Source: a virus (Duplodnaviria > Heunggongvirae > Uroviricota > Caudoviricetes). From it: DNA of 64,000 nucleotides. Where the stretch lies: the IMG/VR virus record IMGVR_UViG_2648501839_000008. One strand, 5' to 3'. A program made the position numbers and the translations under genes. The stretch's first letter is position 1, and each line of letters starts with the position of its first letter. The notes beneath the pieces are model-generated. The model was not told where the DNA came from, searched no databases, and worked only from the letters and a program-made list of their open reading frames with translations. Below, piece by piece: positions 1,950-7,643 of the stretch.

Positions 1950-3644
1950 TTAATTATTAAGCAATCTGCTCACACGTAGTTTGTTAAGACTTGATCTAGA
2001 GGCCAGTTTCGTTAATGCACCTATTGCTTTATTCGTGATTTTTTGCTGTTCTTCTGTTAGTTCTTGCATACTTTTGAATCTGAGCAACCCCTTTCTCACT
2101 AAATCCAAAGCATCCTGATTGCGGGATAGTATCCACTTTAAATAATCATCTTCAGAGAAACTGTTAAGATATGCTATGTCACTATGATTAAATTTGCCTT
2201 CAATTATTTTGTATAAAACATTCTCTAAATTAGTCTCTTCAGGCTTCTTATCCATCAATTTTTTTTGAATTAGCAGACCTAACTTTTCGTTACCAAATAT
2301 CTCTACATACAAATTCCGAAAAGCAGTATAAGCATCATCTTGGCTAACAAAGGCATCTGCATATGCCTCTATATAACTATCACAATCAATCTCCAATCTA
2401 TTTAAGATATCAATCAAGCCTATGAAGTGAGCAACAGGTATGTGTGAAAGATTGTCGTTAATTACACATTTTATCTTAGAAATAAACTCAGATTCATTGT
2501 CCTTGAATGAGTCACTAAAAATATCCCAAACATTGTTAACATCACATAAAGCCTTGTGTTCTTTATATTGTTTATTTTTTTCTTCTATTATACCTCGAAT
2601 ATTGCTTTCAGTAGAAAGATAACCATTCTTGAGATAAAAATCTATGTCATCATCGAAAGCAATTTCCGCTCGTTCATAAATAACATCAAGACTATTAATA
2701 AATGAATATACAGAATCATCCTTTTTATCATCTAACATGTAATCAAATACATGTATGTTTTTAATTGATTCTTTAAACAAGGCATAATCAACACCTGGAA
2801 CACCAGAATAGTAAACCACTGAAAACAGAACCAATCTATTGATAAAACTTTCTCTAACCTTATCCTCTGCCAAGCTTAGCTCATTCCTAAGATTAACCAG
2901 AGATGTTTTTATTTTATTTAATATACGGATATTTTTAATGCCTAAGTCATTTGCTAAGACTTTTAACAAAAGAAAATCAGAATCAGTTTCATAAAAAACT
3001 TTACGTAAGTTCTTCTCAGGCGTAGGATCGTATTTTATTTCGACATCAATTACTTTTTCTCTGTACTCTAAAAACTGTTTTTTTGCAGTTTCATCATGTA
3101 AATTATCTTCATTTAAAATTAGAACAACTTTGCAACCTTTTCTTCTTGCTAATTCATCAATTACCCCCATAATTTCTTTAACTTCTAGCGAATTACCTTT
3201 TCTTTCAACATCATCAATACAAACCAAATAATTATTAACAAATTTATACTCAAGAGATGACAGCAGGTTATCTGTTTTGAACCCAAAAAAATCGTTCTTT
3301 CCGAAATGTATTAAAAATTTTGACAAGGAGTTGTATTTCAACCATCCCCAAAACCCATTTCTATAACGAATCATAGTTCGATCCGTTTCAGATAAAATTA
3401 GTTCTTTATATTTCTTTTCATTAATTGGTGTGGCACAATGATAAAGAGCTTTTTTAATATCACCAATAGAGTTAACCCCAAACAAAGAAACATACGAATA
3501 TGCATTAAAATCTAATCCTTCAGAATGCTTAGTATAAAAACTATTCCAATAATGAGTTTTACCAACGCCCCAATCTCCTTTTATGACGGCAACCCGATGA
3601 TCTGAAACTAGAAAATTTTTTAGAAATGATTCTATCGATTCCAT
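1950..3644 (-). CDS. KAP-family P-loop NTPase (candidate defence or abortive-infection protein), AT-rich cargo gene
   Basis: N-terminal Walker A VIKGDWGVGKTH, Walker B-like LVCIDDVERKG about 140 aa later, long helical C-terminal region; AT-rich codon usage unlike neighbours; probable ATG at 3644 with AAAGGA RBS (track start 3653 is TTG). Confidence 0.55.
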   Translation of the reverse strand: MESIESFLKNFLVSDHRVAVIKGDWGVGKTHYWNSFYTKHSEGLDFNAYSYVSLFGVNSIGDIKKALYHCATPINEKKYKELILSETDRTMIRYRNGFWGWLKYNSLSKFLIHFGKNDFFGFKTDNLLSSLEYKFVNNYLVCIDDVERKGNSLEVKEIMGVIDELARRKGCKVVLILNEDNLHDETAKKQFLEYREKVIDVEIKYDPTPEKNLRKVFYETDSDFLLLKVLANDLGIKNIRILNKIKTSLVNLRNELSLAEDKVRESFINRLVLFSVVYYSGVPGVDYALFKESIKNIHVFDYMLDDKKDDSVYSFINSLDVIYERAEIAFDDDIDFYLKNGYLSTESNIRGIIEEKNKQYKEHKALCDVNNVWDIFSDSFKDNESEFISKIKCVINDNLSHIPVAHFIGLIDILNRLEIDCDSYIEAYADAFVSQDDAYTAFRNLYVEIFGNEKLGLLIQKKLMDKKPEETNLENVLYKIIEGKFNHSDIAYLNSFSEDDYLKWILSRNQDALDLVRKGLLRFKSMQELTEEQQKITNKAIGALTKLASRSSLNKLRVSRLLNN

Positions 3645-3695
3645 TAGTATCAATCCTTTAATTCATATATTGGGCGTAACAAACGCCCAATATAA

Positions 3696-4055
3696 TCAAC
3701 CTTTCTTCATCAACTCTCGTTTAATTTCATCGGTACGCATCGTAACGTCGGCAGCTGTGATCGCCTCGTTAAGCTTCACGATGTCCTCGATTTCCTGCGG
3801 TGACTTCTCTGCCAGATGGAAAATGGCTGCTCGAATCACGTCAGAACGAGTGAACTTCTCGAAGCGAGGGATGAACTTCATCATCTCCAGCAGTTCGAAG
3901 TATTCGTCTTCCAGTGACATTGTGCGGCTTTTAATTTTCTCTTTGCCACGAGTCGGGCGTCCCTGTGGTCTGACTGGTTGGCGCAAAGGAGTTGTGTTCT
4001 TAGCCGGTGCATCAGGCTCTTTGCGCTTTGCTAGGTCACCCATTTTCATGGACAT
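3696..4055 (-). CDS. ParG-like ribbon-helix-helix partition protein
   Basis: 119 aa, basic disordered N-terminus plus C-terminal RHH-like segment; start overlaps parA stop (TAATG coupling). Confidence 0.45.
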   Translation of the reverse strand: MSMKMGDLAKRKEPDAPAKNTTPLRQPVRPQGRPTRGKEKIKSRTMSLEDEYFELLEMMKFIPRFEKFTRSDVIRAAIFHLAEKSPQEIEDIVKLNEAITAADVTMRTDEIKRELMKKG

Positions 4056-4723
4056 TATTCTTCTTCCTCCAGACTCAACAGATAATCTACAAATTCTTCA
4101 AACTCGGCTTCAGCCTTTTTGTCGCGCTCGCTACCGGTCATTTCGAAGATAGAACGACCAGACTCTTCCGCATCATCGTAGACGTTGCGGTTATATAGAT
4201 TGACTGGCGCAGACTCGATGCCAAACGTCTCGACAATCTCTTTAGCCGCCAGAATGCGAGACACTTGTGATGGCAAAGCCGGGCACTGGTTCATGACCGC
4301 GCGGACCTTCACTTTATCGTTTACATTACGAACATTGTCGATAATAGGATCGATGTCACGCAGAGATTTCAAATCACGACGCTTAGGACGAAGCGGGATA
4401 ATGATAACGTCGGCCATCAGCATCGCTTGTCGCTGAATTTCGGAGTCAAAGCCACCAGCATCTACCACTACAAACTCAGCTCTACCCTGAAGCGATTTTA
4501 GGTGCTTAATGATGTCATCCTGGACGTATGCAAAAGGAATCAGCTCAAGGTCTTCGTTCTGTCGACGGTCTTCACACCAGCTCGTTGTCGTGCGCTGAAT
4601 ATCTATATCGGTAATATAAACCTTCTTCTTCTTTTTGACTTTCAGGCAAACGGCAATTTGCTGGGCAACGGTGGATTTGCCAGGCCCGCCCTTTGTGCCG
4701 CCAACCACAAAGATCTTGGTCAT
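4055..4723 (-). CDS. parA: ParA/MinD-family partition ATPase
   Basis: Deviant Walker A GGTKGGPGKST at the N-terminus; 222 aa, small type-Ib ParA size; RBS AAGGGA. Confidence 0.7.
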   Translation of the reverse strand: MTKIFVVGGTKGGPGKSTVAQQIAVCLKVKKKKKVYITDIDIQRTTTSWCEDRRQNEDLELIPFAYVQDDIIKHLKSLQGRAEFVVVDAGGFDSEIQRQAMLMADVIIIPLRPKRRDLKSLRDIDPIIDNVRNVNDKVKVRAVMNQCPALPSQVSRILAAKEIVETFGIESAPVNLYNRNVYDDAEESGRSIFEMTGSERDKKAEAEFEEFVDYLLSLEEEE

Positions 4724-4774: not shown

Positions 4775-4871
4775 TATATGTGATATAGCCTAAATGCCTA
4801 CGGCTGCGGTGTAAAGGTTAAATGGTAGGTGCTGCCTTAGAATTTTTAGGCGAGAATCAATGGCTGTTAAC

Positions 4872-4893
4872 AAAAAAGGCGACCGAAGTCGCC
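4872..4893 (-). terminator. Rho-independent terminator (minus strand)
   Basis: GGCGACTTCGGTCGCC stem followed by TTTTTT on the minus strand, just 3' of the gene ending at 4900. Confidence 0.6.
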
Positions 4894-4899
4894 TAATTG

Positions 4900-5652
4900 T
4901 TAATCTTTTAGATATAAACCAACTGGGGTTCTTGTTTTGCGGGAGATGATAAGTACGATAAATTTCTCAACGTTAACTTGCACCTTATTTGGAAACCAAG
5001 AGCTTAATTCTGGATCAAGTAACAATCCTCTGTTCCACGGCAAAAAGCCGGTTTCTTTTCCCATCCCATATTCGCCTAACACATCCTCGAACGTCTCAGT
5101 TTTTGCGTTGTAAATTCTTACATCACCTGTTCGCATTAATGGACCGGCCCAGATTTTTGCGCCAGGAATGGTCTGATTGTAATCACAGACAAGATGTTCG
5201 TACCAATGAAGGAGGAAGCGATACGTGAGGTTGCACAGTCCCCTTTGCCTTATTGCTCTTTCTGTCTCAACACCTGCAATCTGATAGCAGTCAATCTCTA
5301 CCCCATCCTCGATGAATGTGTATTCACGCAATGCAATTCTGCCTGCTATCGTGTTTCTGCTCTGATCGAGCATGTCGGAACGCAGAATTGCTTGAATAAT
5401 GTCCGAATCAGACATTCCATCTTCGCCTCTGTCCAGAATGAAGTCCATCAGTTCACCCTGATCTCGTGCTCCAACTTTCTCCATCAGGATATACAGACAG
5501 ATATCATCATCAGGCTCGATAATGGTTATTTCGGATATTTTGAAAAGCGATGCTTCGTTGATGAGGTAGCCAAAACGTGAAACGCGAGTTTCCCCACGGT
5601 GAGGAAACTCATAAAGATTTTTAGAGTATGTGCGTTCTAGTGTAGGTGCCAT
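4900..5652 (-). CDS. Hypothetical protein (250 aa)
   Basis: ORF track; ATG at 5650-5652; overlaps the upstream gene by 16 nt (coupled pair). Confidence 0.4.
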   Translation of the reverse strand: MAPTLERTYSKNLYEFPHRGETRVSRFGYLINEASLFKISEITIIEPDDDICLYILMEKVGARDQGELMDFILDRGEDGMSDSDIIQAILRSDMLDQSRNTIAGRIALREYTFIEDGVEIDCYQIAGVETERAIRQRGLCNLTYRFLLHWYEHLVCDYNQTIPGAKIWAGPLMRTGDVRIYNAKTETFEDVLGEYGMGKETGFLPWNRGLLLDPELSSWFPNKVQVNVEKFIVLIISRKTRTPVGLYLKD

Positions 5653-6020
5653 CTTAGAGCAGTACCATCAGCAGTTGTATTGCTGACAATGCTACCATGA
5701 GTATTAAGAAAGCGGCGAATTGCACTCTCAATAATTTCAGAGAATTGGTCACTAAACCGTGCTAATTCAGGGTATTGTTTTGCTGGCTTCACAATGAAAC
5801 GAACACGATCGTTCAGGAAAATCGCTTCAGCCAACGGTTTTACACTGGCACCAGCATTCTCAACATCGTCTTTGAAAGTTACGATGAAGCGAGTGTCTTT
5901 TGGCGCAGTCGCATCGTTGTTAAGTTTACGCACCTCAAGTTTGCGCTTATTCAGCACATGAGTTGCGATAACACTCGTGCAATCGCGAATTGTTTGTATA
6001 GAACGTTTTTCGTTCAGCAT
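5637..6020 (-). CDS. Hypothetical protein (127 aa)
   Basis: ORF track; ATG at 6018-6020. Confidence 0.4.
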   Translation of the reverse strand: MLNEKRSIQTIRDCTSVIATHVLNKRKLEVRKLNNDATAPKDTRFIVTFKDDVENAGASVKPLAEAIFLNDRVRFIVKPAKQYPELARFSDQFSEIIESAIRRFLNTHGSIVSNTTADGTALRWHLH

Positions 6021-6197
6021 GTGTCCACCTTAGCCGGTATTAACTTAATGTCATAGCGGCGACCCTTGTCAGGGTTTAGAGGCTACGAGTATGCGTCGCA
6101 GCATTAATGCAAGGGATGATTTACTTGACATCCATGTGCCAAATCTACCTTGTGCTCTAATAATATGCAAATTTTATGTTAGAAAACTCCTCTTCTG

Positions 6198-6428
6198 TTA
6201 TGGTACTTTTCTGCCCCATCCACACAATCGCTCCCCTATCATATTGTGAAAAAGTACCTCTCTTTCAGTCTCTTCGGTCATGAGATCATCACGGCTGATG
6301 TATAGCGGTGTAGCCGCATCGCAGAAAAGCACACCAGCGGGTTGAGGCTTAATCACGCAACCACTTATTGTGCAACTCATGATGAACAGTAGAAGCATCC
6401 TTGCTCCGTAACTCATCAAGTGTTTCAT
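6198..6428 (-). CDS. o-spanin (Rz1-like outer-membrane lipoprotein), overlapped with the i-spanin gene
   Basis: Alternative frame across the Rz-like gene; signal peptide with lipobox ...FIMSCTISGC; start placed at internal Met (track ORF is 6198-6506). Confidence 0.4.
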   Translation of the reverse strand: MKHLMSYGARMLLLFIMSCTISGCVIKPQPAGVLFCDAATPLYISRDDLMTEETEREVLFHNMIGERLCGWGRKVP

Positions 6429-6600
6429 TTTTGACGTCCAATGTGCTTTGAAGTCGTTTCCTGTCTTCCTGTTTTGCCTTCTCTTCCATTGCTCGTCGCG
6501 CCGCATTTCCGCCCATCGTGTAAGCGCCGACCAGAACGAAAAGAACGGCAGCCAGCGTAATCAAAGCAACTTTTAGCTTTGTCATCAGGCTGCCTAGCAT
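6349..6600 (-). CDS. i-spanin (Rz-like)
   Basis: N-terminal TM segment (LKVALITLAAVLFVLVGAY) followed by a charged coiled-coil region; contains the Rz1-like ORF in another frame. Confidence 0.5.
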   Translation of the reverse strand: MLGSLMTKLKVALITLAAVLFVLVGAYTMGGNAARRAMEEKAKQEDRKRLQSTLDVKNETLDELRSKDASTVHHELHNKWLRD

Positions 6601-6601
6601 A

Positions 6602-7321
6602 TTAGACCATCCCTTTCTGGTGTCTTCTTACCTGCGACCAGGCAATGAATCCGGCCACAACAATAGTGGCAATGCCGAAGATGATGCGTACTGTATCCCC
6701 GCTAGAGATATGACCTTGTGCCTTATCCATAGCAGCGGAAACCTGCGGCATAACATCGGCCAGCTGCGCCAGACCAATACCTGCTGTAACAGTTGCGCCT
6801 GCAGTTTCTTTAGTTACAGGAACAGCCTTCACGGTTTTCACCGGCTTAACGACGCCAGCTCGACGCAGACCTTCCTCAATAACTTCTGCCGCATACCAGG
6901 TGTTCAGCGTTTTTAGCGGACCTCGCCCATTCTCATGGCGAATGATTGCCTCAACCAAAGGTCGAAGAATGTCGTAATCATGCAGATCGATGATCATGTC
7001 TGCGGTTACACCAACGGCTTTAGACACCTCATTAATGTAGGCGTCAGTGTTGTTTTCATTCGGCGGTGCCCAACGTTCAATAACTTCACGAATGGTATCG
7101 ATACTTGAGCCGTCTTTTGCGCGACGTTTGTCGTGGTAGGTAATTAGAGTCACCGCCAGCGCACGAATCCCCCAAACAGGGTCTTTAAACGTGCAAAAGC
7201 GCGGTTCGTCTGGATTCGCAATCAGACCTTGCCACGGTGATCCTTTATCAAGATTACCGGGGTTATTATTACGAATGCCTCTCGGAGTCTTCATCCTTGA
7301 TCTCCTGTTATTGCAGTCCAT
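6602..7321 (-). CDS. Putative lysis protein / peptidoglycan hydrolase candidate with C-terminal membrane anchor
   Basis: Lies between the holin-like and spanin genes; conserved-looking RNNNPGNL motif; C-terminal hydrophobic segment IIFGIATIVVAGFIAW; family not recognised. Confidence 0.35.
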   Translation of the reverse strand: MDCNNRRSRMKTPRGIRNNNPGNLDKGSPWQGLIANPDEPRFCTFKDPVWGIRALAVTLITYHDKRRAKDGSSIDTIREVIERWAPPNENNTDAYINEVSKAVGVTADMIIDLHDYDILRPLVEAIIRHENGRGPLKTLNTWYAAEVIEEGLRRAGVVKPVKTVKAVPVTKETAGATVTAGIGLAQLADVMPQVSAAMDKAQGHISSGDTVRIIFGIATIVVAGFIAWSQVRRHQKGMV

Positions 7322-7643
7322 TTTTTACGCCATACGCGGCTAACCCCAAAAGCAGTGCAGTAATAATGAACGACGTTATTTTAGAAACAATGCCGCCAAA
7401 GAACCCACTGGAGATGGAATCTAACCGGTTAAGGAGTTTGTCCAGGTTGGAGTGTTGAATACTATGTTGCGCCGGGGTCATATCACCAAAGTAGGTTTTC
7501 AGCTGATCATTGACCTCCTGGCCAATTTCTTCACGTAGCTCTTTACCTAATTTGCCAACAACCTCCCGAGCAACGATCGCGGCAATACGCTCAACTTGCT
7601 CTGTTGTAACGCCCGCCATCTCGTTCGACATGTTTTCCTCCAT
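7308..7643 (-). CDS. Small membrane protein (holin candidate)
   Basis: 111 aa with a single C-terminal TM segment; first gene of the putative lysis cassette. Confidence 0.3.
   Translation of the reverse strand: MEENMSNEMAGVTTEQVERIAAIVAREVVGKLGKELREEIGQEVNDQLKTYFGDMTPAQHSIQHSNLDKLLNRLDSISSGFFGGIVSKITSFIITALLLGLAAYGVKNGLQ

Follow-up and report, generated by a model that had tools for sequence, protein, structure and literature searches.

Why a phage-plasmid should keep two overlapping genes of their own between its lysis and partition genes is the question raised by a 64,000-nucleotide stretch of Caudoviricetes DNA (IMG/VR record IMGVR_UViG_2648501839_000008), hereafter called the window. The window is part of an E. 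coli SSU5/pHCM2-like phage-plasmid: its flanking genes resemble those of SSU5-type phages, and about 70 E. coli plasmids match its first 20 kb over at least 80% of the length, the best at 95 to 99% identity. We call the 127-amino-acid (aa) open reading frame (ORF) A and the 250-aa ORF B, and we use "unit" or "cassette" for the promoter, leader, A, B, and terminator together. Here, we find that the unit is an autonomous, horizontally mobile cassette of ~1.3 kb that the SSU5-like phage-plasmid carries as cargo. Its comparative signature supports the kind of organization expected for an addiction or toxin-antidote-type module, as judged from sequence. We therefore read the cassette, tentatively and with somewhat less than even confidence, as a toxin-antidote module (type II toxin-antitoxin [TA]-like or abortive-infection-like) in which B is a GNAT (Gcn5-related N-acetyltransferase) effector and A its antidote or regulator. 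The original prediction, which had leaned toward an addiction or exclusion module, overlooked both the cryptic GNAT-like nature of B and a conserved structured RNA leader ahead of A.

Anatomy and mobility of the cassette

The cassette is built from the following features, in order of transcription.

6142..6170, minus strand: cassette promoter (-35 TTGCAT at 6170-6165, 17-nucleotide [nt] spacer, -10 TAGATT at 6147-6142)
6021..6135, minus strand: structured 5' leader RNA of ~115 nt, with four hairpins and a Shine-Dalgarno sequence
5637..6020, minus strand: gene A, 127 aa, phrog_2594
4900..5652, minus strand: gene B, 250 aa, phrog_3307
4870..4894, minus strand: intrinsic terminator at the end of the cassette (AGGCGAC-TTCG-GTCGCCT, then TTTTTTG)

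The ORF list and the sequence agree with the earlier description of 127-aa and 250-aa ORFs that overlap by 16 nt. In the frame of A, the shared stretch (5637-5652, ATGGCACCTACACTAG) translates as ..W H L H *, and in the frame of B as M A P T L. The start of B thus lies within the final codons of A, no Shine-Dalgarno sequence of its own is evident on reading the sequence, and the two genes appear to be translationally coupled. The terminator described as textbook is indeed one: its minus-strand stem (4894-4877) begins 5 nt past the B stop codon and has 7 bp, five of them G-C pairs, and a UUCG loop followed by TTTTTTGTT, such that hairpin and T-run together occupy 4894-4870. A terminator scan found three terminator-like sites in the region, compared to 0.9 +/- 1.0 in shuffled sequences. 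Both ORFs are genuine genes under purifying selection. Each has dozens of homologues, and comparison to a second E. coli allele gave a ratio of nonsynonymous to synonymous divergence (dN/dS) of 0.14 for A and a dN of 0.135 with saturated dS for B. A relationship of A and B as paralogues was rejected.

The promoter was read from the sequence and falls below the threshold of a generic promoter scan. When the 200 nt 5' of A were aligned, however, TTGnnn-17-TA(G/A)ATT was found to be kept upstream of A across unrelated contexts, with similarity that runs from about the -35 element to the start codon and sequences that are unrelated beyond -35. A conserved, sigma-70-like promoter is the cassette promoter that these alignments indicate in the enterobacterial clade. 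A search for operator-like repeats upstream of A returned only one 9-nt inverted repeat, which lies within the spanin gene.

A and B travel together. When six-frame ORFs of all fetched loci were scanned with hidden Markov models, A preceded B on one strand in every locus examined (~60 loci from at least 14 lineages), and no B without a directly preceding A was found in any of them. Even where B is distant (18 to 31% identity), the upstream gene still belongs to the A family (E values of 4e-7 to 5e-39). A B-family scan of genome contigs gave two loci. In PhiR12 phages, A is intact and a frameshift near codon 66 breaks B into two pieces, each annotated as a hypothetical protein (713-1479 of locus L003 in PhiR12_1). 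For SSU5 itself, the deposited start of SSU5_032 (L001 5360-6154) appears to be too far downstream, as the conserved MAPSL start lies across the end of SSU5_031.

A also occurs alone. Solo A (~116 aa, 47% identity) is present in ~35 IMG/VR loci of P1-like phage-plasmids, including RCS47 and D6, where it is orf106 (L002 4989-5339); loci L046-L083 are among those with solo A. It sits there between the hot/humD/phd-doc region and pmgU as a single-gene unit oriented opposite to its neighbors. In loci L046, L047, L075, and L077, a second A paralogue is also present; it is of the SSU5 type, has no QYPE motif, and is divergently oriented.

Where the cassette is found varies widely.

SSU5: same position as in the window, between Rz1 and parA, with proteins ~31-33% identical
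Lambdoid or P22-like prophages and other integrated elements: directly after the integrase
Serratia prophage: between the Q antiterminator and the lysis genes
Siphovirus: among tail genes, next to an Ant/Arc region
Pantoea integrative and conjugative element (ICE): as cargo
Dickeya chromosome: a two-gene islet between housekeeping genes
Vibrio owensii superintegron: a single cassette bounded by attC repeats, two cassettes away from a Phd/ParE cassette

In most of these other contexts, a hairpin and T-run lie within 5 to 30 nt 3' of B; in the Vibrio integron, an attC site is found there instead. The V. owensii locus (UHIN01000003.1; L091 4767-6208) has attC repeats of ~125-137 nt every 0.6 to 1.9 kb, with GNAT and Phd/ParE cassettes upstream. 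The original prediction drew its case for an addiction or exclusion module from the adjacency of par loci, and that argument is not supported: the cassette also sits at integrases, Q and lysis genes, tail genes, ICE cargo, and housekeeping genes, and recurrence in so many unrelated settings makes par adjacency incidental.

Exchange of the unit can also be seen within E. coli. Two E. coli alleles are only 76% identical even as their flanks are 97 to 100% identical, which argues for exchange at the level of the cassette. Compared with L004 (AP024133.2), which is closely related and from E. coli, the window has a sharply bounded mosaic patch at ~5070-6460 in which identity falls to ~55-80%. Affected are the whole of A and the leader, B over its 5' two-thirds, and Rz and Rz1 at their 3' ends; the last ~170 nt of B are still ~91% identical. 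This pattern suggests allele replacement by recombination inside B.

A and B might instead be accessories of the neighboring modules, with a role in regulating lysis or in the partition or incompatibility of the phage-plasmid. The pair does sit between Rz1 and parA in both the window and SSU5, no terminator was seen to separate A from the spanin genes, and the divergent patch includes the spanin 3' ends. The cassette occurs elsewhere with no lysis or par module nearby, however, and it has its own promoter and terminator. Moreover, Pfam, PHROGs, and NCBIfam gave neither protein a match to a family of lysis or partition proteins, and homology to routine structural or lysis proteins was the finding that the original prediction had named as evidence against itself. 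We consider an accessory role very improbable, and the placement of the pair outside the lysis and partition modules stands.

The structured leader RNA

How the cassette controls its own expression may lie in the leader, which in the enterobacterial clade folds into four hairpins ahead of the Shine-Dalgarno sequence.

6133-6114, minus strand: P1 hairpin, directly after the start site
6099-6082, minus strand: P2 hairpin, GCGACG/CGTAGC, then near-invariant CCTCTAAAC
6075-6062, minus strand: P3 hairpin, ACCCT/AGGGT
6060-6033, minus strand: P4 hairpin, GCCG...CGGC around a variable hairpin
6031-6025, minus strand: Shine-Dalgarno sequence AAGGTGG

Stems change and pairing is kept. P1 has at least eight distinct stem sequences (e.g., GGAUG/CAUCC, GUUGACG/CGUCAAC, and GACUACA/UGUAGUC), and P3 occurs as ACCCU/AGGGU, CCCC/GGGG, and AUCUCCC/GGGAGAU. 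The base of P4 (GCCG/CGGC) is invariant and the hairpin that it encloses varies. P2 is given across variants as GCUACG/CGUAGC; its 3' strand and the CCUCUAAAC that follows are nearly invariant, SSU5 included, and the leader ends in CUAAGGUGGA(A/C)ACAUG. Single-sequence folds gave the identical four hairpins in 12 to 14 variants, with z-scores mostly of -1.8 to -3.3. In a MAFFT alignment, 83.8% of cells were paired, compared to 27 to 50% when the partners were slid, and six pairs had changed on both sides; in a model-fitted alignment, the values were 85.7%, 28 to 50%, and 11 pairs. The covariation score was 0.174 against a shuffle mean of 0.093 for the MAFFT alignment and 0.296 against 0.133 for the model-fitted one, and none of 500 shuffles reached the observed score in either case. 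In P3, 98.7% of cells were paired and four of four pairs covaried in the model-fitted alignment. Finally, G-U pairs in P3 and P4 point to structure in the sense-strand RNA.

The motif belongs to the operon. Covariance model R1 matched the window at 6018-6105 with 84 bits and nowhere else in its 64 kb. Across loci, the model found the motif once per cassette and always immediately 5' of A (22 loci in a first set and 26 in a second); R1 did not find a leader upstream of solo A or of the most distant A-B pairs. In its multihairpin form, its place between promoter and Shine-Dalgarno sequence, its compensatory changes (G-U pairs included), and its constant position 5' of a gene, the leader is like cis-regulatory 5' leaders such as riboswitches, RNA thermometers, and protein-binding leaders. 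Unlike catalogued leaders, it matched none of the 4,227 Rfam families: a cmscan search of 5900-6350 on both strands (E value of ≤10) returned three chance-level matches, none of them over the leader helices. The leader is thus a compact, covarying RNA motif with no Rfam entry that is always attached to the operon and a candidate for a new cis-regulatory RNA.

How the leader might act is suggested by two of its features. RNAalifold, applied to the MAFFT leader alignment, recovered only P3, P4, and a speculative anti-Shine-Dalgarno helix, and P1 and P2 come from the per-sequence folds and the covariance model. The partner of the Shine-Dalgarno region in this speculative helix would be the invariant GUAGCCUCU. 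Because that helix is made of invariant bases, it is without covariation support, and we put the pairing forward as a hypothesis from the folding model. In addition, P1 is also a DNA palindrome that adjoins the -10 element, and thus an operator role is possible. We note that Dickeya-type cassettes (L005 7430-7623 and L031 5800-5994) have a leader insertion of ~60 nt with further hairpins. With the insertion, the (A/G)GCTAAGGTGGACACATG end is present twice, the first time in degenerate form (GGTTTAGTTGG).

Proteins B and A

The original prediction recognized no family for either protein, and searches of Pfam (E value of ≤0.01 for B) and NCBIfam likewise gave no match for A or B, nor did the A and B profiles significantly match PDB sequences (A1, A2, and A3). 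PHROGs, however, holds both families, 2594 for A (1.9e-44) and 3307 for B (1.5e-91), each of unknown function. Literature searches found no paper on the A and B genes. Homology and structure searches, the check that had been proposed, led from B to GNAT-like proteins and from A to no significant relative outside its own family.

B is probably a highly divergent acyltransferase of the GNAT fold. B is an acidic protein (isoelectric point [pI] of 5.0, charge of -10), and when its profile was searched exhaustively against 1.84 billion representative proteins, only 45 clusters were retrieved. An AlphaFold2 (AF2) model had a predicted local distance difference test (pLDDT) score of 69 overall and of 77 to 95 in a core of residues 20 to 150, and it shows the GNAT strand and helix order beta4-alpha3-beta5-alpha4-beta6. 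The best 50 Foldseek matches in the PDB were nearly all named acetyltransferases or GNAT toxins, albeit weak (E values of 0.03 to 0.3), and they include AAC(2'), NatA, AtaT, KacT, and tubulin acetyltransferase. By hhalign, residues 128 to 147 of B align with motif A of ordinary GNATs, and the motif-A-like stretch is IRQRGLCNLTY (residues 135 to 145). The window B protein nonetheless matched none of the Pfam GNAT models (E value of ≤0.01) and was below threshold for all Acetyltransf_* models, and Acetyltransf_1 appeared, under the cut-off at an E value of 0.007, in only 1 of 29 B relatives. Residues P3, Q124, Y144, D157, Q160, W168, and W206 are invariant across the family, which also has the motif SDNxQTxxGxxLWA and an invariant N-terminal M-A-P. 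To the core, B adds an N-terminal beta-hairpin region and a conserved, poorly modeled C-terminal region with a G-F-x-P-W motif.

A further line of evidence for the fold comes from giant proteins. The B profile matched repeated domains in three phage proteins of 1400 to 1500 aa (P0098, P0110, and P0115; E values of 8e-9 to 3e-5), each of which contains two to three copies of the B-like core (independent domain E values of 1e-12 to 3e-6). In P0098, the match at residues 171 to 261 (E value of 8e-9, library-wide) coincides with Pfam Acetyltransf_1. The domains in the giants carry a Y-x-G-K-G-I motif A together with the family motif SD-x-x-Q-T-x-x-G-x-x-x-W. The AF2 strand order, the Foldseek matches, the overlap with Acetyltransf_1 in the giants, and the hhalign alignment to motif A are each modest, and jointly they make the GNAT fold of B likely and fairly convincing.

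The giants are of interest in their own right. The three proteins (1429 to 1486 aa) have tandem DUF6934 repeats and ParB-like DGHHR motifs, P0110 also has an ordinary GNAT domain, and one of the three is encoded at L099 8001-12290 on a phage-like contig. In sequence, they resemble "polyvalent" effector proteins. B shares its core with the GNATs of such proteins but differs in context: polyvalent GNATs are domains within multidomain proteins of 1400 to 1500 aa in which no A-like domain was found, whereas B stands alone as a protein and is always paired with A.

The resemblance to polyvalent proteins raises the possibility that the cassette serves counter-defense or host takeover. B would acetylate and thereby disable a host protein, for example an immune component, with A as adaptor, specificity subunit, or independent inhibitor, and the pair would aid the element at entry or induction. 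AcrVA5, an acetyltransferase that acts as an anti-CRISPR, is a precedent. Phage proteins of 1400 aa contain repeated B-like GNAT cores alongside ParB-like matches and DUF6934, and the polyvalent class that the giants resemble has been interpreted as injected counter-defense effectors (PMC5512222). Moreover, the carriers are mostly phages, phage-plasmids, or an ICE, the pair adjoins late or lysis genes in several phages, and the solo A of P1-like phages would fit a stand-alone inhibitor. A sedentary Vibrio integron and an isolated Dickeya islet, however, are unusual places for counter-defense genes. In addition, a sigma-70-like promoter and elaborate leader of its own are not the simple early or late control of a phage, and counter-defense leaves the strict dependence of B on A unexplained. 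We regard it as unlikely.

A is less readily placed. A is basic (pI of 9.7, charge of +5), opposite to B, and its profile search retrieved ~130 clusters from Enterobacterales, Vibrio, and Shewanella, all "hypothetical" and without informative fusions. R6, Q9, T10, T15, and E65 are invariant and a QYP motif nearly so. The AF2 model (pLDDT of 77) has an alpha/beta fold in which a beta-sheet is followed by a long helix at the C-terminal end and a disordered tail; disorder is predicted for the last 18 residues. Foldseek found no significant fold match for the model in the PDB or BFVD, and a weak likeness to the N-terminal domain of Hat1 (probability of 0.75, E value of 0.4) was seen.

With a small basic protein ahead of a GNAT-like one, the pair recalls com-mom of phage Mu, in which Com is a small translational activator with a zinc finger and Mom is GNAT-like. 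Here too the end of a late region has a small gene that runs into the start of a gene for a protein of ~230-250 aa, and control at the level of translation is plausible. By this analogy, A and B could be a two-subunit modifier or regulator of the DNA, RNA, or protein of the element itself, with A as a nucleic-acid-binding or activating subunit and the leader as an autoregulatory site. The basic nature of A and its invariant N-terminal R, Q, and T would suit such a role, and the near-invariant single-stranded segments of the leader could be a protein-binding site. A relationship to Mom and Com is nonetheless rejected at the profile level (hhalign probability of 0.3% for the B family and Mu Mom). 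Unlike Com, A lacks zinc-finger cysteines (its cysteines show one conserved region and no CxxC pairs), solo A occurs without B, and unlike com-mom, the cassette is found well beyond phages. Because the unit moves among unrelated elements and chromosomes, its substrate cannot be element specific. A modifier of the element itself is thus distinctly unlikely.

What the cassette may do

How might a cassette of this kind work as a toxin-antidote module? In the mechanism that we favor, B, a cryptic GNAT-fold acyltransferase, would be an effector that modifies a host macromolecule. A, small, basic, translated first, and probably made in excess through coupling, would bind and restrain B, control the operon, or both. 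The leader RNA would set the level of A and B translation; it might do so by masking the ribosome-binding site or as a binding partner of A. The toxicity of B, its neutralization by A, the target, and any plasmid-stabilizing or anti-phage effect are what we infer from the following comparisons.

Several lines of evidence lead to the toxin-antidote reading. The order of the genes is fixed and the two appear to be coupled, and the unit is self-contained, with promoter, leader, and terminator of its own. B is never alone and A often is, an asymmetry that, by analogy, is typical of toxin-antidote pairs, and B has decayed with A kept. The integron-cassette, islet, ICE-cargo, and prophage-moron sites would likewise be typical of TA and defense cargo. 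B is GNAT-like, with chains of AtaT and KacT among its Foldseek matches, and the charges of A (+5) and B (-10) are complementary. That type II TA systems can have GNAT toxins is established (PMC9177977), and for the GNAT domains of phage and plasmid polyvalent proteins, host proteins have been predicted as targets (Iyer et al. 2017, PMC5512222). The presence of the B core in giant phage proteins would therefore fit activity on host components, and a host-directed activity is one that a temperate element might be expected to need to hold in check.

In its way of working, the cassette would be most similar to the GNAT/DUF1778 type II TA systems (TacAT, AtaRT, KacAT, ItaRT, and GmvAT of the Shigella virulence plasmid). 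There too a small upstream gene overlaps a downstream gene for a GNAT-fold protein in one operon, and the carriers are plasmids, prophages, and chromosomes. In those systems, the toxin stops growth through acetylation of aminoacyl-tRNA, and the antitoxin binds and neutralizes it. The differences are nevertheless substantial. A is not a DUF1778 or ribbon-helix-helix protein, and its AF2 model is instead a beta-sheet with a long helix. B, an acidic protein of 250 aa, is extended at both termini and misses the Pfam GNAT thresholds. Finally, the cassette has a structured leader RNA and the B-specific SDNxQTxxGxxLWA and M-A-P motifs. We reject membership in the GNAT/DUF1778 group, as none of 28 A-family members matched DUF1778 or ribbon-helix-helix models in Pfam and B did not reach the curated GNAT models.

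A number of observations weigh against a toxin-antidote module. GNAT toxins that acetylate tRNA are smaller and basic, unlike the acidic, 250-aa B. Taken one by one, the structural matches of B to GNATs are weak (Foldseek E values of at least 0.026, TM scores of ~0.2-0.3), and the first glycine of the acetyl coenzyme A motif is kept in 20 of 29 B members and absent from about a third. By Pfam, AF2, and Foldseek, A has no recognizable antitoxin or DNA-binding fold, and A is basic rather than acidic and conserved as well as B. Neither protein matched a family among the PADLOC-DB 2.0 models at an E value of ≤1. Finally, the abundance of solo A in P1-like phages shows that A has a role independent of B, and that role could equally be as a regulator or inhibitor of something else.

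A more elaborate version of the toxin-antidote reading is also conceivable, although we find it rather doubtful. The cassette might be a three-part conflict system in which the leader RNA and A, as an RNA- or DNA-binding protein, gate the release of a host-modifying B. B would then belong to a new GNAT clade and the system to a new type of TA or abortive infection, and solo A in P1-like phage-plasmids would be an antidote, or "anti-addiction" factor, against B-carrying rivals that share their hosts.

Why the function of so small a unit matters follows from its carriers, which are SSU5-like phage-plasmids that are clinically common in E. coli, Klebsiella, and Salmonella. Should B prove to be a toxic acyltransferase kept under restraint, the known TA and defense systems would gain a new branch of GNAT effectors that is cryptic in structure and, with A, a new antidote fold. 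The cassette could aid stable maintenance or competition with co-resident P1-like phage-plasmids that carry A alone. The unit is small and self-contained at ~1.3 kb, such that these ideas are directly testable in E. coli.

In the window, the cassette is surrounded by the following genes.

7308-7643, minus strand: gene in the holin position
6602-7321, minus strand: endolysin, phrog_873
6349-6600, minus strand: Rz spanin
6198-6506, minus strand: Rz1 spanin
4055-4723, minus strand: ParA, with Pfam MipZ/CbiA/ParA matches
Downstream of A and B alongside ParA, minus strand: 119-aa protein in the ParB position

On the minus strand, the order is the holin-position gene, endolysin, Rz/Rz1, A, B, ParA, and the ParB-position protein. 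The Rz1-like lipoprotein ORF (6198-6506) overlaps the Rz-like ORF (6349-6600) in a different frame and extends past its end; Rz and Rz1 here are an overlapped spanin pair, not a fully embedded one. Further along, at 1950-3653 on the minus strand, the window encodes a 567-aa KAP-family P-loop NTPase (Pfam KAP_NTPase, 1.5e-5; phrog_4740) that matches the PADLOC candidate defense family PDC-S49 (2.8e-22). As this NTPase lies just past the par genes, this stretch of the phage-plasmid may be a zone of accessory or defense cargo.

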